A stretch of DNA of 64,000 nucleotides from an uncultured Gemmatimonadales bacterium. Lineage in GTDB: Bacteria > Gemmatimonadota > Gemmatimonadetes > Gemmatimonadales > Gemmatimonadaceae. Of this stretch, positions 1 through 63,159 are shown one piece after another (position 1 is the stretch's first letter; each line of letters opens with the position of its first letter). The stretch covers positions 128,001-192,000 of the forward strand of contig CAWBZV010000005.1 in NCBI GenBank assembly GCA_963793305.1. The letters run 5' to 3'. The notes under the pieces are model-generated. The model made no database searches and was not told the DNA's origin. It was given only the letters and a program-made list of their open reading frames with translations. Both the position numbers and the translations under genes were made by a program.

Positions 1-684
1 GGCGCGCCGAGGCGCTTGGCGAAGACGGCCGGGCCGCGCGGGGTCTTCGCCGGGCGCCCGAAGAACGGCACGAACGTCGAGGCCAAGCCTTTCACACCCT
101 GGTCGGCGAGAAACGCGACCAGTCGCCCATCGCGCAACGATCGCGCCGTGCGCCGCACCGCCTCGTGGTCGTGGACGACCACCATGCCCATGTCCGCGCG
201 CGTGCGCGTGATGTACGCATTGAACAGCGGATTCGCCTGCTTGCGCGCGATCGCGTCGATCGGAATGCCGCGCGCGGCGAAATAGGCGCCACCGAGCTCC
301 CAGTTCCCGACGTGGCCGGTCACGGCGATGATGCCGCGTCCCGCGGCCATCGCTTGCTCGACCCAGTCCCAGTTGTCGACCTGCTCAAAGAGATCGACGA
401 GGCCCTGGCGGCCGAGGCGTGGCGCCAGGGCGATCTCGGCGGCGTTGCGGCCCAGGTGCCGGTATGCGGCCACCGCCGTCCGCTCGACGTCCGACTGACT
501 CATTCTCGGGGAATGCCGCGGCGATCTGTTGCTCGACGACCGCGCGACGGATGCCGAGGGGGCGGTATCCGAGGGCGCCGATCCACGCCCCAAACGCACC
601 GGCGCGCGGCCAGCTCAGCGTCTCGATGGCGCGGACCGCGCCGCGCAACGCGTAGAACTCGGCCGCCTGCGCGAGCGTGGTCAC
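1..684 (-). CDS. Lipid A late acyltransferase (LpxL/HtrB family), 3' end outside the window, one apparent +1 frameshift near 503
   Basis: N-terminus MTTLAQAAEFYALRG...IAAAFPE; after the frameshift reads ...VTGHVGNWELGG...LVAFLADQG...FVPFFGRPAKTPRGPA, typical LpxL motifs (HxGNWE, DQ, vpFFG). Confidence 0.85.
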
Positions 685-1787
685 GCGCAGACCTCGTCGA
701 CGAAGGCGATCGTGTCGGCGGCGACGCGGTCCCAGTTGTAGTGCGACTCGACGGCGTCGCGCGCCGTGCGGGCAAAAGACTCGCGCAGCGCGCGGTCGTC
801 GAGGAGGCGCCGAATGGCGGCGGCGGCGGCCGCGACATCGGTCGGGGGCACCAGCAACCCCGTCTCGCCATCGCGCACGGCCGATGAGACTCCGCCTGAG
901 TTTCCCGCGACGCTCGGTGTGCCGCTGGCCGCAGCTTCGACGAACGAGATCCCAAACCCCTCGGCCTGCGATCCCTCCTCTCTCGACAGGCCTACGTAGA
1001 CATCGGCTGTCGCATAGGCTTTGGCAATCTCGTCATCGGAGAGCGCACCCGCGAATGTGACCCGACTGGCGACGCCCGCTTCGCGGGCGATCGTCTGGAG
1101 CCGCTCGCGATCGGCGCCCGTTCCGACGATGAGATAGCGGGCATCGGGTACGAGGGCGAGAGCGCGGATCGCTACATCTTGGCCTTTGTGCGGGACCAGT
1201 CTCGCGACGGTCAACAACATTCGTGCTTCGCGCTTGCCTCGATCGGGGCGGAAGAACGTGGGGTCGGTGCCGAGATCGATCGCCGCGACTGGAGGTGGCC
1301 GCGTAATGCTCGCTTCGTGCATGACCGACCGCGCCAGCTCGGCGCTCCAGCGCGAGATCGCGATGATACCGCGACTGTCGCCGAGGATGCGGCGAAGCGT
1401 CCAGCGTTTGAGCGGGTTCGCCGAGATCTTGCGGCGCTCTTTGAGCAGGTCCAAGCCATAGACATACACCACGTACGGGCGGCGCATGGACCAGACCGGG
1501 TAGCCGGCTGGACGAATGTTGCCGCAGTGCAAGATGCCCGTGCGCGGGAGCGCTCGCGCCCAGCGAATCTGGTTCCCCAAACTTTTCGCGCCGGCGATGG
1601 AGAACGGCATCCGGGCAATTCTATAGTGCTCCGCCGCGTCGAACGTCGAAGCAGCCGGGTGAGAAACGGTCGAGACGAGAACGCCGCCGGCGTGAGCCAG
1701 GCGGCGACAGCGCTCCACGTTCACCCGCGCGATACCCCCCAAGTCGGGCCCATAGTCCTGCGTGACGAACACATGCCGCTCGCTCAT
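681..1787 (-). CDS. Glycosyltransferase family 4
   Basis: LLTVARLVPHKGQD and EGFGISFVEAAASGTP (E-X7-E) motifs. Confidence 0.9.
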   Translation of the reverse strand: MSERHVFVTQDYGPDLGGIARVNVERCRRLAHAGGVLVSTVSHPAASTFDAAEHYRIARMPFSIAGAKSLGNQIRWARALPRTGILHCGNIRPAGYPVWSMRRPYVVYVYGLDLLKERRKISANPLKRWTLRRILGDSRGIIAISRWSAELARSVMHEASITRPPPVAAIDLGTDPTFFRPDRGKREARMLLTVARLVPHKGQDVAIRALALVPDARYLIVGTGADRERLQTIAREAGVASRVTFAGALSDDEIAKAYATADVYVGLSREEGSQAEGFGISFVEAAASGTPSVAGNSGGVSSAVRDGETGLLVPPTDVAAAAAAIRRLLDDRALRESFARTARDAVESHYNWDRVAADTIAFVDEVCA

Positions 1788-2875
1788 TTCCAGCGACTGC
1801 GATCGCGTGCGTCGTCCGCCGCGCGCTGCACCGCATCGAGCATCATGCGCTCCGTATACTCGCGCGCGACCCGAGCGCGTCCCGCGCTCCCCATCGCCGC
1901 CCGCTGCTCGTCCTGCGACAGGAGCTCGGCGATCGTGGCCGCGGTCGCGGGGGTATCGCTGGGCGGCAGAATGATGCCGCTGATGCCATCGGCCACGTAT
2001 CGACTCGCGACGGTCCCCCGGTCGACGAGCACAGGGACCCGCATCGCCATGAAGTCCAGCACACCATAGACCGCCGTATCGTCGCTCGCCACCACCCAGC
2101 CCAAATCCGCGGCCCGCAGCACGGCCAGGTCGTCGTCCCGCGCCACCAGATGCGTGACCGCGTGGCCAATGTCGAGCGCCGCGGCTTGCATGCGCAAATC
2201 TTCGTGATCGGCGCCCGGGCCGAAGAGGAGGAGATGGAGCTCGGGGTGCCGCGGCACGAGCATGCCCATGGTACGCAACACCGTCGCCGCGCGCTGCTTG
2301 CCGCCCGCATCGTAGACGCAGACGATCAACCGCGGCGATGGCGCGCCGTTGTGCAAGTTGAGTGACGCCGGGCGAAGCTCATCATACCGCGCGGGATCGA
2401 TGCCGAGCTCGGCGACCAGCGCGGAGCGCACGCGCGGCAACGGCGGCGCGGCTTGGGCCTCGGTCGGCGTCGTGAAGAGCAGGCCGGTCGACGCCATGCG
2501 CGACGCGAACCGGGTCGCGCGGTCGGCGATCAGATGATCGCCGGCGGGCGTGCGTCGGATGATACCGCCGCGGCCGGCCAGTCGAGCGGCGCCCGCGGCC
2601 GCCAGATGCTCGCGGTCCGAGTGCACGAACACGGTCTCGACGAAACGTTCGAGAAAGATGTGGTGCAAGCGCCAGCTCTCTAGCGCGACACTCCCGCCCG
2701 GCTCGAACGGGATGACATCGCATCCCTCGGCCGCGACCCTGGCCTCGACGGCGCCACCCGGTGGGCAGACGTACGTAACCTGGTACCCCCGATCGGCAAG
2801 GCCGCGCGCGGAGGACGCGAACATGCGTGCGCTCCCGGTCCAGACCGGGGACGAGTAGTAGAAGAGGACGCGCAC
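1784..2875 (-). CDS. GT-B (GT4-like) glycosyltransferase with an atypical acidic motif
   Basis: MRVLFY N-terminus; C-terminal LDFMAMRVPV...DGISG...AMGSAGRARV pattern of GT4 enzymes. Confidence 0.75.
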   Translation of the reverse strand: MRVLFYYSSPVWTGSARMFASSARGLADRGYQVTYVCPPGGAVEARVAAEGCDVIPFEPGGSVALESWRLHHIFLERFVETVFVHSDREHLAAAGAARLAGRGGIIRRTPAGDHLIADRATRFASRMASTGLLFTTPTEAQAAPPLPRVRSALVAELGIDPARYDELRPASLNLHNGAPSPRLIVCVYDAGGKQRAATVLRTMGMLVPRHPELHLLLFGPGADHEDLRMQAAALDIGHAVTHLVARDDDLAVLRAADLGWVVASDDTAVYGVLDFMAMRVPVLVDRGTVASRYVADGISGIILPPSDTPATAATIAELLSQDEQRAAMGSAGRARVAREYTERMMLDAVQRAADDARDRSRWK

Positions 2876-2881
2876 CGTTCG

Positions 2882-18129: not shown

Positions 18130-18130
18130 G

Positions 18131-20087
18131 TTACTCCTGGCCGTCGTACTGCGCCTTGAGTGTCGCGACGACATTCGGATCCGCCAACGTCGTCGTGTCC
18201 CCCAGCGTCCGTCCTTCCGCGATATCGCGCAACAACCGCCGCATGATCTTCCCGGACCGCGTTTTCGGCAGATCTGCCGCGAACAGCACGTCATCCGGGC
18301 GCGCGATCGCCCCGATCTTGTCGGCGACGAACTCGCGGAGCTCCTCGCGCAACTCCGGTGACGACTCCCGACCCGAGCGCAACGTCACAAAGGCCGCCAA
18401 TGCCTGGCCCTTGATCGGGTGCGCCCGGCCCACGACGGCGGCCTCGGCGACAGCCGGATGCCCGACGAGAGCAGACTCGACCTCCATCGTACCGATGCGA
18501 TGTCCGGCGACGTTGAGCACGTCATCCACCCGCCCGAGGATCCAGAAATATCCGTCGTCGTCGCGCTTCGCCCCATCACCCGCGAAGTAGAGCTCCGGAC
18601 GACCGGACCACTTCGAAAAATACGTATCGACGTACCGCTTGTCGTCGCCCCAAATCGTGCGCAGCATAGACGGCCACGGCCGGGTCAGTGCCAAAAACCC
18701 CCCACCCACGGGGATGGCCGTCCCCTTCGAATCCAGCAAGTCCGCACTATACCCTGGTAATGGCATAGTAGCGCTTCCGGGCTTCGTCTCGGTGATCGCG
18801 GGCAACGGTGATATCACAATCGCGCCTGTCTCGGTCTGCCACCATGTATCCACGACGGGACACCGGCCACCGCCGATACGCTCCCGATACCACATCCAGG
18901 CCTCGGGATTGATCGGCTCGCCAACTGATCCCAGGAGCCTCAACCGGGATAAATCATGCCGCGCGGGATATTGATCCCCCCATTTCATGAACGCCCGTAT
19001 GGCGGTCGGCGCGGTGTAAAAAATCGTGACGCCGTGCCGCTCGCACATATCCCACATGCGATCTTTGTCCGGCCAATCCGGCGCCCCCTCGTACATGACG
19101 CAGGTGGCCGCGTTGGCCAATGGCCCATACACCAGATACGAGTGCCCGGTGACCCACCCAACGTCCGCCGTACACCAGAACACGTCGTCGGGCTTGAGGT
19201 CGAACACCATCCGCATCGTCGAGGCAACGCCCGTCAGATATCCGCCGGTAGTGTGCACGATGCCTTTCGGCTTCCCGGTGGTGCCGGACGTATACAGGAT
19301 GTACAGCACGTCCTCCGCGTCCATGCGCTCGGGCTCGCACACCATGCCGACTCTGGACATCGCGTCATGCCACCAGAATGTCGCGCCCCTCGTGCATCGG
19401 CGTCGATTCGGCGGCCGAGCCGGAGAAGCGCTGCACGACAAACACGCGCGTGACCGTCGGACACTCCTCGAGCGCGCGATCCGCGTTTCGCTTGAGCGGC
19501 ACGATCTGCCCGCGCCGGAAACCCCCATCGCCCGTGATCAACACCTTGGCACTCGCGTCCTGAATGCGATCGCGCAGGGAGTCGGGCGAAAATCCGCCAA
19601 ACACCACCGAGTGTATCGCGCCGATCCGCGTGCAGGCCAGCATGGCGATCGCCGCTTCGGGCACGAGGGGGAGATAGATCGCGACGCGATCTCCACGATT
19701 GACTCCGTGCGCGCGCAGCACGTTCGCGAACTTGTTGACCTCGACCGACAACTCCCAATAGGTCAACGTGCGCCGATCGCCCGGCTCACCTTCCCAAACG
19801 AACGCCGCCTTGTTGCCAAGGCCAGCGCGGATGTGCCGATCGAGGCAGTTGACCGAGACGTTGAGCGTCCCGCCCACGAACCACCGCACGTGCGGCGGCC
19901 GCCATTCCAACGCCGTCCGCCATGGCGTAAACCATTCGAGACGCTTGGCTTCCTGGCTCCAAAACGCCACCGGATCGGCGTTGGCCTTGTCGTAGATGGC
20001 AGGATCGGCGACTGCTGCCGACTTCGAGAAGGCCGCCGGAGGAGGGAACCGGCGGTGTTCTTCGAGCAGGACGTTGATGTCGGTCAT
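18131..20087 (-). CDS. acs: Acetyl-CoA synthetase, one apparent frameshift near 19377
   Basis: [46 protein letters not shown]; removing one base restores GRDIWWHD. Confidence 0.95.
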
Positions 20088-22687: not shown

Positions 22688-24148
22688 TGGTCTATCTCGT
22701 TGGCGCGGGACCAGGCGATCCGAGGTTGATCACCGTCCGAGGCCAGGAGCTTCTGGCGACGTGCAATGTCGTGGTCTACGACGCGCTCGTGAGCCCAGGA
22801 CTCTACGCCACCGCCAAGGACGCCCGTGGCGTCGGCAAGCGCGGTGGCGACGACGCCTCGGCGTCCCAAGCTGATATCAACGCGCTCCTCATAGACCTCG
22901 CGCGGGAGGGAAAAAGCGTCGTTCGCCTCAAAGGCGGCGACCCGTTCGTGTTCGGCCGCGGCAGCGAAGAGGCTCAGGCATTGGCGGCGGCCGGCATCCC
23001 ATTCGAGATCGTCCCCGGTGTCACCGCGGGCGTCGCCGCACCAGCCTACGCCGGAATCCCGGTCACCCATCGAGGGATCGCGACCTCCGTTACGTTCGTC
23101 ACTGGCAGTGAAGATCCGAACGAAACCCGATACGCAGACGGAGTGGTCCGCGCTGGCGCGGGTTGGTGGTACGATCGTGTTGTACATGGGCGTCCGTCAT
23201 CTCCGCGAGATCACGGATCGTCTCATTGCAGGCGGTTTGAGTCCGGACACCCCGGCCGCCGGGATACAATGGGGGACGCTGCCGACACAACGCACGGTCG
23301 TCGCCACGCTGTCGACGCTGGCGGCGGCCGATCTGGCATCACCCCTCATCGTCGTCATCGGTCAGACGGTTGACCTGCGCGAGACGATCGCTTGGTTCGA
23401 TCGCCGACCGCTGTTCGGCCGGCGCATTCTCGTGACGCGTGCGTCTCAACGTGTGGGCTCGCTCTCCGATCGCCTGCGCGACGCCGGCGCCAACGTCGTC
23501 GAGATGCCGTCCACGCGCATTTCCCCTCTCGACGCCGCCGCCCTCCACAACGCGATCCGTCGGTTGCCCAGCTATCAGCACGTGCTCTTCACGAGCCAAA
23601 CCGCCGTGGGATTTTTCTGGGACGCGCTTCGCGCGGTCTCACTCGACGCACGTGCGCTCGCCGGCCTCACGGTGACCGCTATCGGTCCAGCGACTGCCGA
23701 TGCGCTCGTCTCCCACGGTATCGCACCAGACGTCATCCCAGATCGGTTCGTCGCCGAGGGTGTAGTCGACGCACTCCGCGATCGCGTCGATGGCGCGCAC
23801 ATATTGTATCCTGCCGCCGAAGGTGGCCGGGACGTCTTGCCGGATGGTCTGCGAGCCGCGGGTGCGACGGTGGATGTGGTACACGTGTATCGCTCTGAGC
23901 CGATCAAAGGCGCGGTCACTCCGGAAGATCTCGATCTCGTGACCTTCACGTCGGCGTCTACTGTGACGGGCTATGTCGAATCAGTAGGCGATGACCAAGC
24001 CCGCCGGGCTCCCGCGGCGACGATCGGGCCGATCACGAGCGACGCCGCGCGAGCGGCAGGAATCACGGTCGCGATCGAGTCTCCGACCGCGTCGATACCA
24101 GCGCTCGTCGAAGCAATTAAGCAGTACTATGCGAATCGGCACACGTAA
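22687..24148 (+). CDS. Uroporphyrinogen-III C-methyltransferase / uroporphyrinogen-III synthase fusion (CobA-HemD), apparent frameshift near 23119
   Basis: VYLVGAGPGDP, RLKGGDPFVFGRG.EE; then RPLFGRRILVTR, AIGPATA, FTSAST. Confidence 0.9.
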
Positions 24149-28707: not shown

Positions 28708-29390
28708 GTTGGGGCCCATGCCGCAGCCACCCGAAATCCCAAATACTCGCGGATGCGCGGCTGGGCGCCGGTGGCCGAGCGCACGATGGTGCCGAGCTCG
28801 CCAGGGGTAAACCCGCGCCGGATGGACATAATGCCGTCGTGGCGGCTCACCGGATGAAACCCGAGCACAAACGAGAATAGCCAGAGCCCGGCTACGGCGA
28901 GGTCGGAACGCAACAGGTCGCTGACAATGACCCCAACCCGAGCCACACGGTTGAGCTCCTGAAGCAACGCGACCGCATCGTGATCGAAGAAGTGATGCAG
29001 CACCTGCGAGCAGATCACGACATTGACGCTGTGACTGGCAAAGGGCAGGAAGCGGCCATCTCCGACGACGGCCGCTCTCATGGACGTGCGTGCCGCCGCC
29101 GCGAGCCACTCGGCTGCCTCGAGCCCCACGGTGTCGAGCGTGACGCCCCTCCGCGCGGCCACCTCGCGCGCGCGGCGCGGAATGTCACCCATGCCGGTCC
29201 CGACGTTCGAGCAACGTCGCCCGTTTGGGCAACGATGGCATGATCGACTCCAGCTCGTACATGACCGCTCGCGTGCCGCCCATGAGCGAATTGGCGAGCA
29301 TGACGTTGCGCAGCGAGCGACGCGCGAGCGCCGGATCGACGTCCGGCGCGTCGAGTATCTCGTCCCCGTCGGGACGGATGCGCGGGTCAG
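28704..29390 (-). CDS. SAM-dependent methyltransferase, frameshifted in this sequence
   Basis: EILD..RSL..N..GG, LLDVGTGMGD (after removing one base near 29206), LPF, LHHF, SDLLR, HDG..SIRRGFT; start uncertain. Confidence 0.82.
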   Translation of the reverse strand: MTRASVPTGTRYSTRRTSIRRSRVARCATSCSPIRSWAARERSCTSWSRSCHRCPNGRRCSNVGTGMGDIPRRAREVAARRGVTLDTVGLEAAEWLAAAARTSMRAAVVGDGRFLPFASHSVNVVICSQVLHHFFDHDAVALLQELNRVARVGVIVSDLLRSDLAVAGLWLFSFVLGFHPVSRHDGIMSIRRGFTPGELGTIVRSATGAQPRIREYLGFRVAAAWAPT

Positions 29391-43735: not shown

Positions 43736-44574
43736 GCTCGAGCGTCAGCGAATCGAGCCGGGCGACGAGCGAGTTGACGTGGTTGTAGAGCTCCGGATCG
43801 TTCACGAGCTTGCCGGCGCTGCCGCCGCCCGTGTCGATTTTCGCGACGAGCGCATCGAGATGCGAACGTCGTATTCGACAGATTGCTGGTCAGCGTCGTC
43901 AGGTTCGCGCTCGACGTGCGGATGTTCTTCACGGTCGAGTCGATCGCCGATGAGTCGACGGCCGACACGGCGCGGTTGAGCGAAGCCATTGTCCGGTTAA
44001 GGGCCTTCGATTGGTCCGTGGCGATCTGGCTCAGCGTCTCCACGAGCTTGTTCGCGTTGTAGAGCGTCTTCCGCAGGTCGCCGATCGCGCCGCCCTGCAC
44101 GAGCTCGACCTGTACGGCCTTGGTGACGTCGCCCAGCTGACCGCCGATCGAGTCCATTTTCATGATCAGATCGCCGATGCCCGGCGCCGGCGCAGCCGTC
44201 GGAATCGTGTCGTTCTTCGCGATGTATTGGGTGGTCGGCCGCGCCGGTTTGAGCGCGACCTCCATGTCCCCGAACAACCCGTTTGGCTCGATCGCCGCCA
44301 CGGTGTTGACCGGGATCCGGTACTTGTTCTCGATCGAGAGCCGCACGCTCACGGTCCCATCGGGCACCAATTCGACGTTGTCGACATAGCCGACGCTCAC
44401 GCCGGACAAGAGCACCGGCTGCCCTTGCTTGACGCCCGCGCCCCACCGGAACCGGGAATACAGCGGATAGCCCGACGAGAGCCCGCCCCGGATCAAGTAG
44501 ACCGTGCCGAAGACCAGGACGAGGATCGCGACCGCGGTCACCAGTCCGACCAACACTGCGTCGCGTCGTCTCAT
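43689..44574 (-). CDS. mlaD: MlaD/MCE family protein, apparent frameshift near 43865
   Basis: GVKQGQPVLLSGVSVG.V, GLFGD; corrected C-terminus GSAGKLVNDPELY...HPGKFVPPIHIF*. Confidence 0.85.
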
Positions 44575-45398: not shown

Positions 45399-46471
45399 GT
45401 CCGCACGCGGATGAGGAGATACGCGCCGGCCAGGCCGAACAACACGTTCGGCACCCACGCCGCGAGGTCTGGCGGGATGAGCCCCTTGTTGCCGACACCC
45501 TTGGTCAGTTGAATCAGCATCAAAAACGCGATCGTCGTGGCGAGACTCACGCCGACACCGTACGCCGCGCCGCCGCGTTTCGTGCTCGTCGCCAGCGACG
45601 CGCCGAACATCACGATGATGATGCACGTCACCGGCACGGCGATCTTCTGTGCCCGCTCGACCCGCAGCTCGGCCGCGTCCCCACCGGACCGCTCGGCCGC
45701 CCTGATGTACCGGGTCAGATCGCTGTACCCCATGTCCTCGGGCTTACGCGGAATCGCCATGAGATCGGCGGGCGTCTCGCGGAACTGTTTGTCGTGCACC
45801 GAATCGAACTGCACACTGAAGTTGCGGTTCGAGTCCGGAACGACGTGCACCACGCCCCGCGCCAGTTCCCAGCCGTGCGCCGGCGTCCAGGTGCCGTGGT
45901 TCGCGGTCAGGATCACGGTGGGATAATCCGCCCCGTTGCCCTTTCGTTCGATCTCCAGGCCATCAATGGTGTGGCGTTGCGAGCTCAGGGCGCTCACCCG
46001 ATACACCCGTCCCTCGGTCCCAGCGTACGTAAAATTGTACCGGTCGGTGCCCGTCTTGAACTGGGATTCCTGCAGCAGGTCACTGCGCTTCGCGTTGGTG
46101 ATGGGCACGAGCCACGAGAGCAGCAGTCCCAGGCCGCAGGCCAGCGTCGCTCCGAAATAGATCGGCGCCGTCAGGCGGTAGAACGAGATACCGGACGCTT
46201 TGGCCGCGGTGATTTCCGCATGACGCGTAAATGCACCGATCGAGAACACCGTTGCGAACAGCACGGCCGCCGGCAACACGAGAAACATCGAGTCGGGAAG
46301 CCAGAAGATGTAACTCAGCGCGATGCTCCCGGGCGGGATATTCCGGTTCAAGTAGTCGTTGAGATGGTCGACCAGGTCGATGACGATGACCAGGATCGGA
46401 AATCCCAACGCGGTCGCCACGAAGATGTTCCACCACTCGGAGAACACATACCGATCGAGCGGACGGAACAC
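45395..46471 (-). CDS. lptG: LPS export permease LptG (LptF/LptG family)
   Basis: LDRYV, LPAAVL, EITAAKASGIS, LAAWVPN. Confidence 0.85.
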   Translation of the reverse strand: MFRPLDRYVFSEWWNIFVATALGFPILVIVIDLVDHLNDYLNRNIPPGSIALSYIFWLPDSMFLVLPAAVLFATVFSIGAFTRHAEITAAKASGISFYRLTAPIYFGATLACGLGLLLSWLVPITNAKRSDLLQESQFKTGTDRYNFTYAGTEGRVYRVSALSSQRHTIDGLEIERKGNGADYPTVILTANHGTWTPAHGWELARGVVHVVPDSNRNFSVQFDSVHDKQFRETPADLMAIPRKPEDMGYSDLTRYIRAAERSGGDAAELRVERAQKIAVPVTCIIIVMFGASLATSTKRGGAAYGVGVSLATTIAFLMLIQLTKGVGNKGLIPPDLAAWVPNVLFGLAGAYLLIRVRT

Positions 46472-48287: not shown

Positions 48288-49209
48288 TTGAGACCAATTT
48301 CAAGATCAAGAACTTTGGGCATCTTCCTTTGCGCGATCACAGTGTTCGGTGCGTGCGGTCACGGTGCGGCGCACACGCCGTTCGACGGTCGTGCCGCGCT
48401 CGCGCTCATCCGCACCCAACTCGACTTCGGACCGCGCATTCCGGGCACTGATGGCGCGCTTCGCTGCGGCGACTGGATCGTCGCGACGATGGCGAAGAGC
48501 GCGGACACCGTGATTGTCCAAAGCTGGACGCATACGACCGTCCGGGGCAAACAACTCCCCCTTCGCAACATACTCGCTCGGTATCGCCCCTCGGAGACGA
48601 ATCGCGTGCTGTATGTGACGCACTGGGACACGCGGCCGGTCTCCGACGAGGCGACCGACCCGGCCGAGCGGAGCCAGCCCGTCCCGGGGGCGAACGATGG
48701 CGCATTGGGGACCGCCTTGCTCATGGAGCTCGGCGCCGTCCTCGCCAAGACGCCGCCCACCTATGGCGTCGACCTGCTCTTTGTCGACGGTGAGGACTAC
48801 GGCACGTTCACACCCGAGCACGACGTCCTCCTCGGCTCCACCTATTTCGCGTCGCATTCTGCCGTCGTCCGATTATCGGCCCATCTTCGGCATTCTGTGG
48901 GACATGATCGGGGATCGAGACCTCCAGATCTACGAGGAGGGCAACTCCCTCCAGCAGGCTCCCGAGGTCGTCCAGCGCGTGTGGCACGCGGCCGGGGACC
49001 TCGGGTACGCCGACTACTTTGTACCCCGCTACAAGTACACGGTCACGGACGACCACGTGCCCTTGCTCAAGGCCGGCCTGCGCGTCATTGACGTGATCGA
49101 CTTCGACTACCAGGGGGTCCACCACACGCCCCGGGACACCTTCGACAAGGTCTCGGCCGCCTCGCTCCAGATCGTCGGCGACGTAGCGACCACCCTCGTT
49201 ACACAATAG
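48288..49209 (+). CDS. M28 peptidase / glutaminyl-cyclase-like lipoprotein, apparent frameshift near 48857
   Basis: FGPRIPGT, HWDTRP, GANDG, FVDGEDYG, DMIGD, DDHVP, HHT..D. Confidence 0.88.
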
Positions 49210-49220: not shown

Positions 49221-49248
49221 GGGGGGTCCGGGGGCGTGACGCCGCCGG
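49221..49248 (-). repeat. Partial copy (right module) of the hairpin repeat family
   Basis: ggggggtccgggggcg-tga-cgccgccgg matches the GGGGGGTCCGGGGGGCG end of the full copies. Confidence 0.55.
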
Positions 49249-49365
49249 CAAAATGGGCGTCCTGCAAGTGCGGCGCCCCCATGGGGCGTATCGCGTTCAT
49301 TTGTTTCGCACTTTGCGCCCCGCCCCTGTGGATCAATCGCTCGCCCTTATCCCGAGTGGACACTC

Positions 49366-51189: not shown

Positions 51190-52367
51190 GCGGTACAGCC
51201 GCACCAGCCGCAACGACCGCCGCACCGCCAGGCGGCGGCGTCAACCTGCGCGCCCTACTCGAGGAGATGATCGAGCGCGACGCGTCAGACCTCCACATCA
51301 CCGCCGGTGAGCGACCCAAGCTGCGCATCGACGGCGAGATCACCAACTCGCGCAACGAGTACGTGATGTCGCCGAAAGACACGCTGACGCTCGCCTACTC
51401 GGTGTTGACGGAAAATCAGAAAAAACGCTTCGAACAAGAAGATGAGCTGGACTTCTCGTTCGGTATCCAGAACCTCGCTCGTTTCCGTGGCAATTGCTTC
51501 AAGCAGCGCGGCTGCGTATCGATGGCGATCCGGCAGATCCCGTTCTCGATCAAGACGTTCCAGGATCTGGGATTACCAGCCGTCATCGCCAAGATGGCCG
51601 AGAAGCCCCGCGGTCTCGTGCTCGTCACAGGTCCCACGGGGTCGGGCAAATCGACGACCCTCGCGGCGATGATCGACAAGATCAACCGCGAGCGCCGTGG
51701 CCACATCATCACGGTCGAAGACCCGATCGAGTTTATCCACCGCCATCAAAACTGCATCGTCAATCAGCGCGAAATCGGCACGGACACGAAGTCGTTCCAG
51801 ATGGCGCTCAAGTACGCGTTGCGCGAAGACCCCGACGTGATTCTGGTCGGCGAGATGCGCGACCTGGACACGATCCAGGCCGCGCTCACCATTGCCGAAA
51901 CGGGCCACTTGGCATTCGCCACGCTGCACACGAACTCCGCGGCCGAGGCGATCAATCGTATGATCAACGTCTTCCCGGCGCACCAGCAGTCACAGGTCCG
52001 CGCGCAGCTGGCGTTCGTGCTCGAAGGCATCATCACGCAGACGCTCCTCGCCAAGGCGAAGGGGCGGGGCAGAGCCATGGCCGCCGAGATCCTGGTGGTC
52101 ACGCCCGCGATCCGCGCGCTCATCCGCGACGACAAGATCCACCAGATCTATTCGTCGATGCAGTCGGGCAAGAAATTCGGCATGCAGACGCTGAACAATG
52201 CCCTGTATGCCTTGTACATGTCACGCGAAGTCTCGACGGACGAGTGCCTCCGCGTGTCCAGCGACCCGAACGAGTTCTTGCGCATGATCGGACAGCCGCC
52301 GCTCGACGAGGCTGGCGATGCAACGAAGGCGACTAACGGGAAACCCGCAGCAACCGGTCGCCGGTAA
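51186..52367 (+). CDS. pilT: Type IV pilus retraction ATPase PilT
   Basis: SDLH, GPTGSGKST, EDPIEF, LREDPD, AETGHL, AIRALIR, GMQT. Confidence 0.95.
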   Translation: MSGTAAPAATTAAPPGGGVNLRALLEEMIERDASDLHITAGERPKLRIDGEITNSRNEYVMSPKDTLTLAYSVLTENQKKRFEQEDELDFSFGIQNLARFRGNCFKQRGCVSMAIRQIPFSIKTFQDLGLPAVIAKMAEKPRGLVLVTGPTGSGKSTTLAAMIDKINRERRGHIITVEDPIEFIHRHQNCIVNQREIGTDTKSFQMALKYALREDPDVILVGEMRDLDTIQAALTIAETGHLAFATLHTNSAAEAINRMINVFPAHQQSQVRAQLAFVLEGIITQTLLAKAKGRGRAMAAEILVVTPAIRALIRDDKIHQIYSSMQSGKKFGMQTLNNALYALYMSREVSTDECLRVSSDPNEFLRMIGQPPLDEAGDATKATNGKPAATGRR

Positions 52368-52392
52368 GACCCCTTTTTCCAGGATTTGAACC

Positions 52393-53595: not shown

Positions 53596-53628
53596 CCTCG
53601 CGGTAGTCGAAGTCGCCGGCCCGCCTCC

Positions 53629-54750: not shown

Positions 54751-57473
54751 GTACGGCCGGTTCCACACATCGGCGGTAATCACCGCCGCGGTGTGCGGCG
54801 CCCGCTTGAGCACATTGTCATTCCGATCGGCCGTGCCCGCCTCGATCTCGCGGATCTCTTCGCGGATCGCCAGCATCGCGTCGCAGAACCGATCGAGCTC
54901 CTCGCGCGACTCGCTCTCCGTCGGCTCGATCATGAGCGTGCCGGCCACGGGGAACGACACGGTCGGTGCGTGGAAGCCGTAGTCCATGAGGCGCTTGGCG
55001 ATGTCCACGACATCCACGCCAGCCGACGCCTTGAACGCGCGCGGGTCGACGATGCACTCGTGTGCGACCAGCCCAGCCGCCCCCGTATAGAGCACCGGGA
55101 ACGCACCAGCCAGCCGGTGCGCGACATAGTTCGCGTTCAGTATCGCCACCTTCGTCGCCTTGGTCAGCCCGGCTCCGCCCATCATCGCGATATACGCGAA
55201 GGAAATCGGAAGGATGCCCGCGCTTCCGTACGGCGCCGCCGAGACGGCGCCAATGCGCTCCGGCAAGAACGGCGCGAGCTCACTGGTGACGCCGATCGGC
55301 CCGACGCCCGGTCCACCGCCACCATGCGGGATGCAGAACGTCTTGTGCAAGTTGAGATGGCACACATCGGCGCCAATGTCCCCCGGCCGCGCCAGCCCAA
55401 CCATGGCGTTCATGTTCGCGCCATCCATGTACACCCTGCCGCCGGCCGCGTGCACGAGATCGCAAATTTCTTTGATGCGCGTCTCGAACACCCCATGCGT
55501 CGAGGGATACGTAATCATGAGGGCAGCAATGTGTTCCCTATGCTGTTCGATTTTTGCCTGCAGATCCGCCACATCGACGTTCCCGTGCGCGTCGGTCGCG
55601 ACCACGACCACGGGCATATCGGCCATAGCAGCCGACGCGGGATTGGTCCCATGAGCCGATTGGGGTATCAAGCAGAATGTTGCGCTTGGTGTCGCCCCGT
55701 GCCGCGTGGAAGCCCTTGATCACGAGCAACCCGGCGTACTCGCCCTGCGATCCAGCGTTGGGCTGCACGGAAACCGCGTCGAACCCCGTGATCGTGGCTA
55801 GCGCGCTCGATAACCGCCCGATAAGCTCGGCGTACCCGGCCGCCTGCTCGGGTGGCGCGAACGGATGCATCTCCGCAAATCCCGGCCACGAAATGGGCAG
55901 CATCTCAGCCGTGGCATTGAGCTTCATCGTGCACGACCCCAGCGGGATCATCAATGTCGTGAGCGACAAATCGCGCGTCACGAGCCGGTGGAGATATCGC
56001 ACCATGTCGCTCTCCGACCGGTGCGTGTTGAACGCGGGATGCGTGAGAAACGGCGTCGCGCGCGCAAACCGCTCGTCATACCGCGCATCGACCGTCTCCA
56101 ACAGCAACTCGGCCCCAACCGGCGCCGCCGGCCCGCCATTCAGCGCCGCCAGGATGTCGTCGACATCAGCCGGCGTCGTCAGCTCGTCGAGCGTCACCCC
56201 GAGACTCCCGTCCTCGTACACGCGCAAATTCATGCGGCGCGCCGCGGCCGCCGCCGTCACGGCCGGCAACGTCCGACCTGCCGGCGTCACCCGAATCGTG
56301 TCGAAGAAGATGTCGTGCTCCACCGTGAGCCCCAGTCTCCGCGCACCCTCCGCCAGCGCCTCGGTCAGCCAATGCACCCGCGTGGCGATCCGCGTCAGAC
56401 CCTCCGGGCCATGCCACACGGCGTACATGCCAGCCATCACCGCCAGCAACACCTGCGCGGTGCACACATTGCTGGTCGCGCGCTCGCGCTTGATGTGCTG
56501 CTCGCGCATCTGCAGGGCCATGCGCAGGGCAGGGTTGCCGTCCGCGTCATGGCTCAAGCCGATGATGCGGCCGGGGATGAGACGCTTGAACTCCTCGCGC
56601 GTGGCGAAGTACGCGGCATGGGGTCCGCCGTACGCCATGGGCACGCCAAACCGTTGGGTGCTCCCCACGGCAATGTCGGCACCCCACTCGCCCGGAGGCG
56701 CGAGCAGCGTCAGGCTGAGCGGATCGGCGGCGACCACCAGCAGCGCACCAGCCCGATCCGCCGCCGCACGCAACTCCCGGTAGTCGTAGACAATACCATC
56801 AGTCGCCGGATACTGAACCAGCACACCGAAACAGCGATCCGGCAGCTTCTCGCGATGATCCCCAATGATGATCCGAATGCCGCGAGCCCGCGCGCGGGTC
56901 GACACGACAGCGATCGTCTGCGGATGGCATGTGTCCGAGACAAAAAAAGTATCTTTGTGGCCGTCATTGCTGCGCGCCGCTTGAGCCAGCGACATCGCTT
57001 CGGCCGCGGCGGTGGCTTCGTCCAACAGCGACGCGTTCGCCACCGGAAGACCGGTGAGATCGATAATCATCGTCTGGAAAATCAGCAGCGCTTCCAGAAC
57101 GTCCTTGCGCGACTTCGGCCTGGTATGGCGTGTACGCCGTATACCAGTTGGGGTTTTCGAGAATATTCCGCCGGATAACGGGCGGCAGGATGCACCCGTG
57201 ATAGCCCTGTCCGAGGAATGACCGCCAGACCTGATTCTGCCCAGCGATGCGCGCCAACTGGGCCAGCGCCTCGGCCTCGGTCTCGGCCTCTCCGATCGCC
57301 AGCGGTCGCCGTGAGCGAATGCTCTCGGGGATGACCGCGTCGATAAATGCATCGAGAGATTTATAGCCCAGCGCGGCTACCATGGCGCGGATGTCATCAT
57401 CGCGCGGACCAATGTGCCGCGAGGCGAACTGGTCGGACTCGGCCGGCATCGCCGGCGCAGTGGTTATCGTCAC
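54616..57473 (-). CDS. gcvP: Glycine dehydrogenase (single-chain P protein), two apparent frameshifts near 55676 and 57098
   Basis: [58 protein letters not shown]. Confidence 0.96.
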
Positions 57474-58579
57474 GAGGGTTTGCGTTTCGGGGGATGAGAC
57501 GTGCGATAAAAGGGCAGACTGACCGTGGTCGCCGGCACTCGCCGACCACGAATGTCGATCTCGATCGTTGTACCGGCTTTTGCCTGGGCCGTAGGCAGAT
57601 ACGTGGTGCCGATCCCATACCCCAGCGTCGGGCTCATGATGCCACTGCGGACGCAGTCGACGGTCTGGCCGTCGCTCAGCACCGAATACCCGTGGCGCGG
57701 CACGGCGCGCTCGTCAATGCGAAACCCGACGAGCTTCCGAGCCGCCCCCTGCGCTTTCTGGGCGACCAGCACGTCCTTCCCGAGAAACCGGGGCTTGTCG
57801 AGCTTCGCCGTCCAGGCCAACGACGCCTCGATCGGCGTCACGCTGTCATCGATATCATTGCCATACAACATGAGACCGGCCTCGAGTCGCAGCGAGTCGC
57901 GCGCTCCGAGGCCGGCGGGTACCGCGCCGTCGATCGCGAGCAGCGCATCCCACACGGTCGTCGCATGCGCGGCGTCGAAATAGAGCTCGACGCCATCCTC
58001 GCCCGTATATCCCGTGCGCGAAACCAGCGCATGCACGCCAGCCACCACGGCGTGCGTGAAGTGATAGTACAGCACGTCGTCGAGCGACGTCGGCGTCATC
58101 GCGCGCATCACGGCCCCCGACGCTGGCCCCTGTACGGCGATGAGCGCGGTCTGATCCGAGATGTCCTCGATCGCGCAGTCGAATGATCCGACGTAGCGCC
58201 GCATGTGCTCGACGTCTTTGTCGCGATTCGAGGCGTTGACCACGACCATGACGCGATCGGCGAGCCGATACACGAGGCAGTCGTCGACGATGGTGCCGTT
58301 CTCGTTCAGGATGGTCGAGTACTGCACCTGGTTGACCGCCAATCGTCCCGCGTCGTTCGATGTGATGAAATCGACGAACGCGACCGCATCGGGGCCGGTC
58401 ACCATGACTTCGCCCATGTGGCTGACGTTGAATACCCCACACCGTCCGCGTACCGCGTGGTGCTCCGCGGTCATCCCTGGCGGATACGCCAGTGGCATTT
58501 CATACCCCGCGAACGGGACCATCTTTGCGCCGAGCGCGACGTGTCGCTCGTAGAGCGCCGTATGTCTAAGTGTTGTCAC
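57470..58579 (-). CDS. gcvT: Glycine cleavage system aminomethyltransferase
   Basis: FAGYEMP, VSHMG, SRTGYTGEDG.E, GLGARD.LRLEAG, SPTL, PFY. Confidence 0.96.
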   Translation of the reverse strand: MTTLRHTALYERHVALGAKMVPFAGYEMPLAYPPGMTAEHHAVRGRCGVFNVSHMGEVMVTGPDAVAFVDFITSNDAGRLAVNQVQYSTILNENGTIVDDCLVYRLADRVMVVVNASNRDKDVEHMRRYVGSFDCAIEDISDQTALIAVQGPASGAVMRAMTPTSLDDVLYYHFTHAVVAGVHALVSRTGYTGEDGVELYFDAAHATTVWDALLAIDGAVPAGLGARDSLRLEAGLMLYGNDIDDSVTPIEASLAWTAKLDKPRFLGKDVLVAQKAQGAARKLVGFRIDERAVPRHGYSVLSDGQTVDCVRSGIMSPTLGYGIGTTYLPTAQAKAGTTIEIDIRGRRVPATTVSLPFYRTSHPPKRKPS

Positions 58580-58619
58580 ACGTGACAAAGATGCCGCCAT
58601 TGACACCTTCGATCAACGA

Positions 58620-59006
58620 TCACGAGCGACGCCCACGCCAATCGTCGAGGAGACGCCGGTCCTTTTTGGTCGGACGGCCTTCGCGCTCGTAAGTGGGAAC
58701 GGGCGCTGTCCGCATCTGCGCCGCCAGCGCCTTACGCGCCGCGATGCTCTCCGGAAGCTCCTCATAGAGCTTGGCAGCCTCAACCGCCGGCCCGCGGCGC
58801 TCCGACAAGGCTTTGACGACGAGAATGACCTCGAATGGCGGTTGCCGGACGCGCACGCGGTCGCCGACACCTAACGCTTTGGCCGGCTTGGCTTTATCGC
58901 CGTTGACCTCGACGCGCCCATTTTCGATTGCCGCAATGGCCAGGCTGCGCGTCTTATACCACCGCGCAGCCCATAACCATTTGTCGAGCCTGGTCTTGTC
59001 ACTCAT
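58620..59006 (-). CDS. hslR: S4-domain ribosome-associated heat shock protein Hsp15
   Basis: RLDKWLWAAR.YKTRSLA, RRGPA..A..LY, GRPTKKDRR. Confidence 0.93.
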   Translation of the reverse strand: MSDKTRLDKWLWAARWYKTRSLAIAAIENGRVEVNGDKAKPAKALGVGDRVRVRQPPFEVILVVKALSERRGPAVEAAKLYEELPESIAARKALAAQMRTAPVPTYEREGRPTKKDRRLLDDWRGRRS

Positions 59007-59030
59007 TGTCGCTAATATATACAGATTGCG

Positions 59031-60317
59031 ATGACCGTTACTGCTTCTCAGCCTTCTATAGAGCACACGCTCTTTCCCTCGGCAAATCGTACGGCGGCGT
59101 TCCGGCTCGATCTCGGGCGTACCGAGCTTCCGAGCCACCGTCTCCGCCCTAAGGCCGAGGTCGGTGTTCTCGACATCACGAAGTGGTTCGGCGAGACCAG
59201 CGGTGGCGTCCGGACGTACCTGCTTGAAAAAGCGCGGTACGTCGAGGCCCACACCGACATTCGCCAGGTCCTCGTCATCCCCGGGGCACGCGACTCGATC
59301 ACACAAAGCACGGGTGTCCGCTGTTATCGCTTGCGCGGTCCTCGTGTGCCGACGCAGCGACCCTATCGCTTCATGCTGGCGACTCGGTCTATTCGTCGGA
59401 TCATCCACCACGAATCGCCGTCCATCATCGAAGTCGGGAGCTGCTTCCTGGTCCCCTGGATCACAGCCCACGCCGCCAAGAAGTCCGACGTCCCGCTCGT
59501 GTTCTTCTATCACAGCAATCTGCCGCGCAGCATCTGTGCGTTTCCGGAACGCTCCTCCCGTACCCGCCAGCGCGCCCACGCCTTGGCCTGGCGCTACATC
59601 CGCAAGCTCGACTCCTTGTTCGAGCTCACTATCTGTGCGTCCCGGTCCGCGGCCGACGACCTGCAATCGCACGGCGTGGATCGAGTAGAGCGCGTCCCAC
59701 TCGGCGTCGACCTGGATCACTTCAACCCATTCCGCCGCTACCAGTCGGAAGAGACGAGAGAGCGCCTTGGGCTGCCGCTCGACGCTCCGGTCGTCGCGTT
59801 CATTGGGCGGTTTGCGAGAGAGAAAGAAGTCGATGTGTTGATCCGCGCATGGCCGGAGATCGCCCGCCGGACGGACGCGCACCTGCTCATGGTCGGTGAC
59901 GGTCCCCAGCGCGAGCGTCTGCAAGGCCTGGCCGAAAGCCACGAGCGAGTCCTGTGGATGCCATACGAGCACGATCGCGAGCAACTCGCCAACCTTCTTG
60001 CCGCGGTCGATCTCTTCGTCGCCCCAGGCTCGATCGAGACGTTCGGCCTCTCGGCGCTCGAGGCGCTGGCGTCAGGCACTCCGGTGCTGTCGGCCGACCG
60101 AGGCGGAGTCTCCGAGCAGATCGAGGCGTCAGGCGCCGGCTCGACGTTCACCGCCGGCGACCCGGGTTCGCTGAGTGAGACCGCGATCGACCTGCTTGGC
60201 GCCGATCTCTTAGGGCTAGGGCGCCGCGGCCGCGCGTATGCAGAGCGCGAGCATTCCTGGGACGGCGTGTTCGATCGCATCTTCGATATCTATCGCCACG
60301 TCCTGGCCGCCGCCTGA
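59031..60317 (+). CDS. Glycosyltransferase family 4
   Basis: SGGVRTY, GRFAREK, GDGP, ETFGLSALEALASG. Confidence 0.9.
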   Translation: MTVTASQPSIEHTLFPSANRTAAFRLDLGRTELPSHRLRPKAEVGVLDITKWFGETSGGVRTYLLEKARYVEAHTDIRQVLVIPGARDSITQSTGVRCYRLRGPRVPTQRPYRFMLATRSIRRIIHHESPSIIEVGSCFLVPWITAHAAKKSDVPLVFFYHSNLPRSICAFPERSSRTRQRAHALAWRYIRKLDSLFELTICASRSAADDLQSHGVDRVERVPLGVDLDHFNPFRRYQSEETRERLGLPLDAPVVAFIGRFAREKEVDVLIRAWPEIARRTDAHLLMVGDGPQRERLQGLAESHERVLWMPYEHDREQLANLLAAVDLFVAPGSIETFGLSALEALASGTPVLSADRGGVSEQIEASGAGSTFTAGDPGSLSETAIDLLGADLLGLGRRGRAYAEREHSWDGVFDRIFDIYRHVLAAA

Positions 60318-61033
60318 CCGCGCTCCTCGTCTCCATCCATGATGTGACGCCGGCGTTGGCGTCGCGCGTCGAGGCGCTCTGGGCCCTCTGCGCGGCCCGC
60401 GGCGTCACGCCTGCGCTACTCGTTGTACCGAATTGGCACGGGGACTGGCCCCTGGAGCGCTATCCCGACTTCGTGCAGTGGATACGGTCGAGGGCCAAAG
60501 ACGGCGCCGAGGTATTTCTCCACGGCGAGCGTCACGACGAGGTCGGATCTCCACGAGGATGGCGTGATCAGTGGCGCGCATTCGGGAAGACGGCTCGGGA
60601 GGGAGAGTTTCTGACGCTCGAGGCCCCGGCCGCCCGGGAACGGGTGGAACGGGGACTTGCGCTGTTCGCGCGGTTGGGACTGGACCCCATCGGGTTCATT
60701 CCCCCCGCTTGGCTCGCGCGCGATTCCTGCGTTGGCGTGATCGGAGCACTCGGCCTGAAATTCTACGAGGACGATGCGATCGTCACGAACTGCGCCAGTC
60801 AAACGCATTACCCGTCCCCCGTGGTCCGTTGGAGTGCTCGCACGCCGTTGCGTGCGAGGGGATCGGCGCTGGTCGCCGAGTGGCGTTGGCGCGCGCAGCG
60901 CGCCGAGCGCTATGCAAGAATCGCCTTGCACCCGAGCGATCTGGACAGCCCGATCACGGCGCGCTCAGTGGAACACTCGCTCGACCGGTGGGTTGCCGCG
61001 CGACGGCCGACCCGATATCAAGACCTTGCCTGA
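60314..61033 (+). CDS. Polysaccharide deacetylase-like protein (DUF2334-like)
   Basis: VSIHDVTP, LLVVP, LHG..H, GEF, GFIPPAW, RIALHP.D; start uncertain. Confidence 0.8.
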   Translation: MTALLVSIHDVTPALASRVEALWALCAARGVTPALLVVPNWHGDWPLERYPDFVQWIRSRAKDGAEVFLHGERHDEVGSPRGWRDQWRAFGKTAREGEFLTLEAPAARERVERGLALFARLGLDPIGFIPPAWLARDSCVGVIGALGLKFYEDDAIVTNCASQTHYPSPVVRWSARTPLRARGSALVAEWRWRAQRAERYARIALHPSDLDSPITARSVEHSLDRWVAARRPTRYQDLA

Positions 61034-61036
61034 CCC

Positions 61037-61948
61037 GTGCTGAGCACGGCCGCGGCCCTCGCACTCTGTCTCGGCCTGTTCACGGCCGACCACCTCGCGC
61101 GCGCATGGCGCGTTCAAGTCTTAGCGAGAGGGCTGGGCAATCGCACGCCTTTTATCAAAGCGTTCGCGCTGAACGCGGCGAGCGATGCGACGTCCGCCCT
61201 GACGCCGCTCAAGCTCGGCGGCGAGCCCGTGCGGTTCGGCGGATTGATCAACGCGGGCCTCAATGTATCCGACACGATCGCGCTGATCAGCGTCGAGGCG
61301 ATCATCGAATGGGCCGTCGTGATCACCCTCGGCGTCTCGATCTTCTGGCACTGGGGCGGGGCATGGTGGCGCACGCAGCAGCAAGTGCTGCTCCCGCGCT
61401 TGGGGCACGCGATCCCGTGGGTGGCGCTGATTGTTGTCGTGGGCATCGCGATCCTGTTCGGCTTCAGAAAATTCCTGCCGCAGGTCTCGATGTACGTCGG
61501 GGGAACGCTCCGCGACTCGATCCGCCTCGCGCGCCGAATGCCGTTCTGGGCAGTTGCCGCAACGGTACCCATCACGGCGCTTCACGTCGTCGCCCGCATC
61601 GCGATTCTGCCGGCGGTCTTCGCCACGCTCTCCAATCCACCGGCGCTCGGGACGGTTGTCGTCGGATCATTCGTGCTCCTCTACGGCCAGAATTTCCTGC
61701 CGACGCCCTCCGGAGCCGGCGCGATCGAGCTGGGATTCCTGGATGGCGCGGCGGGGTATGTCGGACCCGAGGCGGGCGCGTTGCTCGTCACGTGGCGGTT
61801 CTACACGACGCTGTTGCCCATCGTGCTCGGCCTCGTGTTCGGCACGGCGATGTACGCCCCGGTGCTGCATCGCATCGCGCGCTTCGTCCTCTTACGGCGG
61901 CGCCGAGCGCGCCGCACATTGCAACGTGACAACGACGCTCCGGGCTGA
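61037..61948 (+). CDS. Lysylphosphatidylglycerol-synthase TM domain / flippase-like membrane protein
   Basis: RAWR, TP..LGGEP, PTPSGAG..E, TWRFYT. Confidence 0.82.
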   Translation: MLSTAAALALCLGLFTADHLARAWRVQVLARGLGNRTPFIKAFALNAASDATSALTPLKLGGEPVRFGGLINAGLNVSDTIALISVEAIIEWAVVITLGVSIFWHWGGAWWRTQQQVLLPRLGHAIPWVALIVVVGIAILFGFRKFLPQVSMYVGGTLRDSIRLARRMPFWAVAATVPITALHVVARIAILPAVFATLSNPPALGTVVVGSFVLLYGQNFLPTPSGAGAIELGFLDGAAGYVGPEAGALLVTWRFYTTLLPIVLGLVFGTAMYAPVLHRIARFVLLRRRRARRTLQRDNDAPG

Positions 61949-63159
61949 CCACGACTCCGGGCGCGCCGAGGCGGCGACCGAGCTCCGGCTCGCGCTGTTC
62001 ACGGACACGTATCCGCCACAACTGAACGGCGTGTCGCGCACCCTCGAGCGCCTGGTTTCGGCGGTACAGGCACGTGGCGGTTCCGCTCGGGTGTACACGA
62101 CGACAGATCCTGAAGTCACGACGCGGTCAAGCGACATTTGGCGACGCCCGAGCATCCCATTCTGGGCCTACCCGCAACTCCGTCTCGCGCCTCCCGTCGG
62201 TGGCCGCATCTATCGCGACTTGTTGGCGTGGCGACCGACGTTGATCCACGCGGCAACACCGTTTGGCATGGGGCTCACGGGTCGTGCGTGTGCGCTGCGC
62301 CTCGGCGTTCCTCTGGTGACGTTGTACCACACGTCATTTAGCGAGTACGCGCGATTTTATAATCTGGGATTGTTAAGTGGCCTTGGGTGGGCGTTCTTCC
62401 GTTGGTTCCACAATACGGGGCAACGCACCTACGTCCCGACGCGCGCGATCGCCGATGAGCTGGGCCGTCTCGGGTTCGCACGTCTTGCGGTCTGGGGGCG
62501 GGGGATCGAGATGCAGCGGTTCAATCCGCTATATCGCTCCGCCGCGTGGCGCCAGCGACTGGGCGCCGACGACGATACGATCGTCGTGGCCTACGTGGGC
62601 CGCCTGGCCGCTGAGAAGGGGTTGGACGTTCGCGCTCTCCGCCATGCAGAGCCTCGCGTCCAACCGCCGGATCCGTTTCGCCCTGGCCGGCGACGGCCCC
62701 TACGCCGACCATTGCCGCCGCGCGGCGCCGGGCAATGCCATGTTCACCGGCCGCATCGTCGGCGAAGACCTGAGCGCATTCTACGCGTCGGCCGATCTCT
62801 TCATGTTCCCATCGACGACGGACACCTTCGGCAACGTGTTGCTCGAAGCGATGGCCTCGGGACTCCCCGTGATTGCCGCCGATGTCGGACCGACGCGCGA
62901 GCTACTGGCGAGCGGCGGTGGCGTCACGTTCCCAGCGAGCGACGCTCACGGGTTGGCCGCCCAGATCCTCGCGCTCGCCAGCGATCCGGCGCGTCGCCAT
63001 GCGCTCGCGGCCGAAGGGTTACACGCGGCGCAGAACTGCTCCTGGGACCGCATCTTCGATGCGCTCATCGCCGACTATCGTCAGGTGTCGACCGAGCCGC
63101 CCGTATGGCCCCGCCGGGCGATCACTCATACGAAGACTCGTCCGCTCTCTCGACGCTGA
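61926..63159 (+). CDS. Glycosyltransferase family 4 (MgtA/PimB-like), apparent frameshift near 62629
   Basis: FTDTYPPQLNGV, HAATP, YVGRLAAEKG, GDGP, FPS.TDTFGNVLLEAMASG. Confidence 0.9.

Follow-up and report, generated by a model that had tools for sequence, protein, structure and literature searches.

The DNA stretch analysed here, called the window, comprises 64,000 nucleotides (G000:C5:128001-192000) from the assembly of an uncultured Gemmatimonadales bacterium, termed G000 (5.72 Mb, 26 contigs, 65% GC, 92% complete), which we treated as a probable member of the Gemmatimonadaceae from the names of the homologues of its proteins. At nine places in the window a gene is broken by a single extra base. 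Errors in G000 concentrate at two motifs, GACGTC and GATG, and strike the first G of either. Because both motifs start with GA and fail at the G, a methylated adenine at position 2 is the simplest reading. With a probability of about 0.7 we consider these to be nanopore errors caused by methylated A, with GACGTC marked by a beta-class and GATG by a D12-class methyltransferase; G000 carries one gene for each. The broken genes are very likely assembly artefacts of a published kind, not biology.

Inserted and substituted bases in the window

A preliminary description had ascribed the nine frameshifts to one shared lesion, GAYG turned into GAAYG. All nine pentamers were found at their positions. 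Removal of one base rejoined the frames, and a longest-frame script recovered the anticipated peptide at eight of nine sites; at the M28-like gene the script chose the other strand and the peptide was not reproduced. The notion of a single GAYG lesion did not hold, since the restored contexts split into GACGTC, AGATG and GACGAA. GACGTC is restored at 29204 (29202..29208, minus strand, methyltransferase-domain gene), 43864 (43864..43870, plus, mlaD-like gene), 57097 (57097..57103, plus, gcvP) and 62627 (62625..62631, minus, GT4-like gene). AGATG is restored at 501 (501..505, minus, GAGATG, lpxL-like gene) and, each time as CAGATG, at 19376 (19376..19380, plus, acs-like gene), 48855 (48855..48859, minus, M28-like gene) and 55675 (55675..55679, plus, gcvP). 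At the plus-strand sites of both motifs the inserted base is an A. The ninth site, in a cobA-hemD-like gene (23118..23122, plus), reads GACGAA upon restoration and fits neither motif; relatives are one base shorter there and their letters differ (CCACG, CCACA or CGACC).

Contigs of four public sequencing runs, X1-X4 out of X1-X20, were compared over window positions 43750-63749 (20 kb, 5 of the 9 sites). The X1 contigs, about 99.9% alike to the window but not proven to be the same strain, are one base shorter at all five sites (43865, 48857, 55676, 57098 and 62629). The X2 contigs likewise are without the extra base at 5/5 covered sites; X3 is without it at 48855 and 57097, X4 at 55675 and both at 62625. 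G001, a relative from the same genus of which 1.035 Mb (about a fifth of the genome) were taken and 829 kb aligned, covers 61,464 window bases and has no extra base at any of the nine sites. The relatives G004 and G005 are without it wherever the alignment covers the sites, i.e. both at 501, 19376 and 57097, and G004 also at 55675 and at 29202, where it has GACGTC as does G001. Because near-identical contigs and relatives are without the extra bases, we regard these as errors of the G000 assembly. That the affected genes are intact in the cell is the best explanation. Other indels listed in the compared 20 kb are at 49858 (X2 only), 63189-63226 and 63613.

A commoner lesion, overlooked in the preliminary description, is a substitution at the same G. 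X1 and the window differ by 22 counted A>G/T>C changes; of the 13 listed, 8 are at GATG and 3 at GACGTC. On the plus strand GATG is affected at 45965..45968 (read as AATG), 52197..52200 and 56371..56374, where X1, X2 and X3 have G, and at 55528..55531 and 55953..55956, where X1-X4 have G. On the minus strand the GATG sites are 48703..48706 (X1, X2 and X4 have C on the plus strand), 62135..62138 (X1, X2 and X3) and 63356..63359 (X1 and X2). GACGTC is read as AACGTC at 51966..51971 (plus; X1-X4 have G) and is substituted at 58424..58429 and 62318..62323 (minus; X1-X4 have C on the plus strand).

Two error motifs in the genome

In the 829 kb alignment with G001, the counts of an A inserted after G were 22 for GATG and 21 for GACGTC, against one for other GACG and two in all remaining contexts. 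Insertions in the reverse direction numbered 0, 0 and, elsewhere, 13. Among 24,368 isolated differences to G001, G>A exceeded the reverse at the first base only, 335 vs 145 at GATG and 87 vs 8 at GACGTC. It was flat at GATC (200 vs 195), CATG and AGCGCT. GACG without a following TC was flat as well (194 vs 176), which speaks against a single GAYG/CRTC motif. Frameshifts were then scanned genome-wide with a coding model which needs no relative. Of 423 +1 events in G000, 282 were localised: 73 at GAACGTC (4.8 expected), 45 at GAATG (18.1) and 32 at other GAACG (36.4). This tabulation of contexts against background, called for in the preliminary description, thus gave enrichment at GAACGTC and GAATG and none at other GAACG. 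The 350 localised -1 events of the same scan had no motif enrichment, and in G001, scanned as a control, the count was 0/24. The claim that consensus errors are tied to sequence motifs was therefore borne out by X1 and X2, by the relatives and by the enrichment at two motifs.

The net error amounts to about 18% per strand at GACGTC; at GATG it is about 3%. A 5' C favours substitution, and at GATG a 5' A favours insertion. The excess rates at CGATG, AGATG, GGATG and TGATG are 4.7%, 4.3%, 1.6% and 0.8%, figures which are confounded by flank effects of the basecaller. Since CGATG and AGATG suffer most from the error and GGATG little, the site in G000 is not GGATG. GACGTC is less dense in G000 than in G001 (0.92 vs 1.32 per kb). 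No distant second half-site was found within 16 bases of the motifs, and no HsdS protein (PF01420) in G000, i.e. a bipartite type I system was not encountered.

Further motifs were considered and rejected. AGCGCT, suggested by a 7-mer excess, is equally skewed in G001 and in G003, another relative, and has no error asymmetry. GTGCAC (G>A 21 vs 3) is unsupported, as ATGCAC has no forward bias in the family genomes G058, G074 and G119. Two contexts, TCCC[A>C]G with 15 vs 0 and ACCC[G>A]T with 18 vs 1, were picked post hoc among thousands; their k-mer ratios are equal in G000 and G001, and they are unsupported. RGATCY and ATGCAC, known from Gemmatirosa, gave no error signal in G000 against G001. 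Independently, AGCGCT, CTCGAG, AACGTT, AAGCTT, TTCGAA and AGATCT occur less often than expected in G000 and G001 and, for the most part, in G003; this is real avoidance, not error.

The G>A/C>T spectrum at RA/TY motifs in G000 is that of methylation-induced nanopore error. In native R10.4.1 reads G is miscalled as A at modified sites, in the G-bearing reads, and the error is gone after amplification (Hammerhead, PMC11610603). A minimal shared error motif RA/TY was reported for 32 species, with RACG/CGTY in Klebsiella (Lohde et al., 10.1101/2023.09.15.556300), and G2A is the main R10 error class around motifs supported by SMRT (single-molecule, real-time) sequence data (10.64898/2026.01.14.699587). 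G000 is alike in its G/A and C/T ambiguity at RA/TY, which in the first two reports is strand-specific and strain-dependent, and RACG/CGTY is the very context of its GACGTC. It differs in that some sites become gene-breaking one-base insertions, whereas the parts of these two reports cited here describe substitutions, and in that its motifs were read from finished assemblies without reads.

We thus propose that native DNA was sequenced on a nanopore platform and that two marks were present, a palindromic G(6mA)CGTC and a non-palindromic G(6mA)TG (6mA, N6-methyladenine). The G before the methylated A would be miscalled such that reads of the methylated strand give A and reads of the other strand give G. 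The consensus would then keep G, take A or, presumably when the split is near even, write both, turning GA into GAA, a frameshift. A G/A split, already suggested in the preliminary description, would account for insertion and substitution alike, as judged from consensus sequences.

Methyltransferase candidates and alternative explanations

As anticipated, the responsible enzyme would lie outside the window: a genome search yielded five methyltransferase genes in G000, four of adenine type and one of cytosine type, and none is in the window. Family searches identified a beta-class enzyme (284 aa, PF01555, DPPY before the S-adenosylmethionine-binding motif; G000:C2:48215-49066), a D12-class enzyme (362 aa; G000:C4:116398-117483) and an Eco57I-like gamma-class enzyme (1042 aa; G000:C4:75608-78733, minus strand, L095:7606-10734) which adjoins a downstream SNF2-like helicase (L095:5527-7810). 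A C5 methyltransferase with Vsr and the BREX-1 protein PglX are encoded in one island on C3 and were not found in the four relatives searched. In a family survey of 121 genomes the beta-class gene is present in 6, the D12 gene in 53 (by our own split 44 close and 9 distant) and the Eco57I-like gene in 117. The latter is in 87/87 good family genomes and hence a core orphan methyltransferase, Dam- or CcrM-like in its conservation. The tallies include two unpublished genomes, G012 and G051; no single claim depends on those two.

On class and precedent, GACGTC would best be assigned to the orphan beta-class enzyme, beside which no restriction gene was recognised. M.AatII makes G(m6A)CGTC (PMC3287169); it shares the motif with G000, and its methylated A directly follows the G that is miscalled in G000. 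The GACGTC motif was also reported in a hot-spring survey (10.64898/2026.06.24.734251). The beta-class protein with DPPY is present in G000, G001, G004 and G005. G003 has the D12 and core enzymes, but beta-class, C5 and PglX proteins were not found; it has the GATG error and not the GACGTC error. The GACGTC enzyme would therefore be the beta-class, the C5 or the PglX protein. A GAC-GTT codon signal is raised in G000 only (ln odds ratio 0.88+-0.07) and exceeds 0.1 in 0/8 sampled relatives. Gene and GACGTC error coincide in a single positive genome, which is thin support; G003, G058, G074, G119, G007, G111 and G089 are without both. The beta-class candidate best matches one unnamed PADLOC type II profile of 331 positions (E 2.6e-96), far above others. 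M.AatII presumably has about 331 amino acids, by arithmetic from published plasmid sizes and the length of Dam. The two are compared via this unnamed profile only, and the named homologues carry no specificity.

For GATG the best candidate would be the orphan D12-class enzyme, probably acting on just one strand. G003 carries the D12 protein at 73%. In 400 kb of G003 (a single contig) CAATG occurs 545 times on the forward and 230 times on the reverse strand (z 12.5), with higher forward counts in 20/20 stretches. C[G>A]ATG was the top asymmetry of an unbiased scan of G003 and retained a z of 9.6 after correction for gene orientation. In the frameshift scan of G003, 6/18 events were at GAATG with the G000 model (0.6 expected) and 4/23 with its own model (0.7 expected). 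Because natural sequence should be strand-symmetric, strand counts were used as a test across the family: SCAATGY and SCGATGY were counted on both strands of the 121 genomes. The highest asymmetries were in G119 (z 12.7), G074 (11.0), G058 (7.6), G117 (3.1) and G034 (2.7), all of them few-contig genomes with a close D12 gene. A z above 2.5 was reached by 5/8 few-contig genomes with such a gene and by 0/22 without. The 91 many-contig genomes behaved as noise (z 0.12+-0.96), and a matched GATC control had a maximal z of 2.0 in 121 genomes. A ratio of ratios, which also detects symmetric errors, ranked G000, G119, G117 and G058 on top, all with a close D12 gene. G058 has a strong codon signal on both strands. 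That the error prefers the forward contig strand in some assemblies but not in G000 might, at a guess, come from how ties are broken when the consensus is made. First-base C>T at CATC (141 vs 107) is weak and does not decide on both-strand marking. Frameshift scans of 200 kb samples (G058, G074, G119, G007) gave 0 to 2 GAATG events, samples of this size being too weak, and 80 kb samples of G111 and G089 were uninformative.

The D12 gene of G000 sits among housekeeping-type genes with an extracytoplasmic function (ECF)-type sigma factor downstream. No second D12 gene was found in G000, and no partner methyltransferase or nuclease was recognised within 1.5 kb on each side. A PDB sequence search with the D12 protein had 0 hits. 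It matches the N-terminal half of two-domain methyltransferases, and its best PADLOC matches include positions 1-337 of a 646-position profile. We take this profile to be FokI-like. The N-terminal domain of M.FokI recognises GGATG (PMC3985630), methylated as GG(m6A)TG, and M.BtsCI was described as a fusion of similar kind (PMC2831314). The D12 class is shared with M.FokI, and relatives of the G000 enzyme occur as N-terminal halves. Unlike FokI, the G000 enzyme is single-domain, no nuclease was seen, and the flank preference of the error differs, as described above. Another known system is MhoVII of Mycoplasma hominis, for which 6mA at GATG/CATC was first proven in 2026, the motif being virtually unknown before according to its authors (PMC12898733). 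The four-base non-palindromic site is the same, with 6mA proven in MhoVII and proposed in G000. MhoVII combines two fused methyltransferases with a nuclease, whereas in G000 a single D12 gene and no locus with two activities and a nuclease was found. That a lone D12 methyltransferase, with no nuclease, in 44/121 Gemmatimonadaceae-like genomes would mark one GATG strand at about 65,000 sites per genome, i.e. would constitute a conserved hemimethylating mark, has in our view an even chance of being correct.

Several observations weigh against the proposed methylation and enzyme assignments. The error calls are based on finished assemblies and contigs of runs, and a platform is on record for none of G000, the relatives and X1-X4. 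Gene absences are limited by the 92% completeness of G000. The class assignment of MhoVII is the opposite one: its beta-class half produces G(m)ATG, its D12 half C(m)ATC (PMC12898733). The low, flank-dependent error rate leaves room for a longer or partly methylated GATG motif. CAACGTC is forward-biased in G058 (220 vs 158), which is without the beta-class gene; yet these strand counts have no matched denominator and are over-dispersed, and other genomes deviate equally in the opposite direction. In the family test the 22 negatives may be non-nanopore or polished and are therefore weak, and kin are not independent (G058 and G117 are of one genus). The z cut of 2.5 was chosen after seeing the data; 4/8 genomes pass at z 3 and 3/8 at z 5. 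Three of the eight D12-positive few-contig genomes, G000, G132 and G016, have no asymmetry, and G075 has a ratio of 1.36 without a D12 orthologue (its split D12-family gene was considered and is not an orthologue). In orientation-corrected 200 kb samples the asymmetry of G074 held (z 4.2), that of G119 (1.7) and G058 (0.6) did not.

The first alternative accepts the errors and motifs but has GATG written by the core Eco57I-like gamma-class enzyme, or the D12 enzyme marking the A of CATC. The core enzyme, with its 117/121 genomes, is in every genome with the GATG error, the unpublished CATC enzymes of REBASE are described as stand-alone proteins of the gamma group, and CATC is the site modified by the D12 half of MhoVII (PMC12898733). 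However, the core enzyme is also in all 22 few-contig genomes without a close D12 gene, of which 0/22 are asymmetric. The SMRT methylome of Gemmatirosa kalamazoonensis KBS708, the one methylome of a cultured relative that was found, by homologue names of the same family and with active 6mA methyltransferases, has the motifs RGATCY, ATGCAC and CCAGN7TCA, and no GATG or GACGTC (PMC3974934). The resemblance of the D12 protein to N-terminal halves, of which that of M.FokI recognises GGATG (PMC3985630), also disfavours this alternative, which we consider unlikely.

Second, the modified base might be a cytosine on the other strand (4-methylcytosine or 5-methylcytosine, 5mC), namely the C that ends CATC and GACGTC, with T called in its place. 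In a consensus, G>A on one strand looks the same as C>T on the opposite one, and the C5 methyltransferase with Vsr of G000 was not found in 4/4 relatives searched. Yet G003 has the GATG error and no PF00145 hit, the sole PF01555 protein of G000 has DPPY and is of adenine type (DPPY vs SPPY, PMC12898733), and in published data it is the G-bearing reads that are wrong at error-prone sites (PMC11610603). Furthermore a GRCGYC 5mC enzyme should also affect GACGCC, where the counts are flat (14 vs 18). A modified cytosine is thus rather improbable.

Third, a non-methyl mark, i.e. a phosphorothioate at GpA or a 7-deazaguanine replacing G, would be expected to affect the G and the GA step, where the lesion lies. 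The dnd or dpd chemistry considered in the preliminary description was not corroborated: dndC was found in 0/1 genome (G000) and dpdA in 0/5, four others with the error included, in a search which covered no ssp and no other dnd genes. Because the error also tracks an adenine methyltransferase gene across genomes, such a mark is very improbable.

Finally, real strain mutations or a basecaller bias independent of modification can hardly be the cause, even though the strain identity of X1 is unproven and some G2A bias persists in amplified DNA (10.64898/2026.01.14.699587), because hundreds of core-gene frameshifts at two motifs are absent from four runs and three relatives, the contig-strand asymmetry has no obvious biological source, and the GACGTC error, not seen in G003 despite the GATG error there, is therefore strain-dependent and not a fixed sequence bias.

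A literature search of mostly open-access papers, without REBASE, found no GATG or GACGTC methylation in Gemmatimonadota and no work which reads motifs from the strand asymmetry of assemblies; per-species motif supplements (bioRxiv papers, PMC8919816) lay outside the search. For marine Gemmatimonadetes bins no motifs were reported (PMC8919816).

Consequences and further observations

As for the frameshifts, they are common artefacts of a kind already described in the literature. A rough extrapolation puts the false frameshifts of G000 at several hundred and its false G>A changes at about three thousand. G000 serves as a species-representative genome, and pseudogenes, stop codons or protein variants called in it at GACGTC and GATG should be ignored. 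The GATG error is also present in several other representatives of the family. If correct, a solitary, vertically kept, one-strand GATG enzyme in this major, rarely cultured soil lineage would suggest a regulatory or replication role, and it would be a new variant beside the two-enzyme MhoVII. On the methodical side, consensus errors can serve, with no reads at hand, to tie a motif to an enzyme across genomes, for GATG via the strand asymmetry of CAATG vs CGATG.

Small plasmids, e.g. NZ_CP040032.1 (L184:2722-3840), carry homologues of the beta-class candidate (about 53%) in Klebsiella (13 records) and Escherichia (10 records). These might explain the strain-specific RACG/CGTY error for which Lohde et al. 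had no assignment. The BREX-1 island (brxA, B, C, pglX, pglZ, brxL) is at L093:29-16418 and 18305-19684 (G000:C3:722-742 kb) and adjoins the C5 methyltransferase with Vsr. In brxC, in pglX and in a helicase gene upstream the reading frame is split, and at each of these splits there is a motif-type site which, once taken out, lets the frame join up again. The island may thus be intact, although control 5-mers sometimes rejoin frames too and a split in brxL is unexplained.

In the window, about 2.1 kb of G000 (about 14200-16280) are without match in G001 or G004. Compensating one-base indels against both are clustered at 17386-17561, between the genes 16457-17137 and 17716-18294, and are not motif-type. 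A two-base insertion at 33507, again against G001 and G004, and a C absent from G000 at 63613-63614 and supplied by X1 and X2 are not GAA-type lesions. A short repeat at 63159-63261 resembles repetitive extragenic palindromic (REP) elements, has a contig depth of up to 650 in X1 and has further copies in G001. Copy numbers of the control word YCTAACS range from about 10 to 4,860 on each strand across family genomes (G013, G098, G082, G065, G056, G064, G122 and others), a spread far beyond that of neighbouring words and possibly due to a lineage-specific repeat or codon habit.

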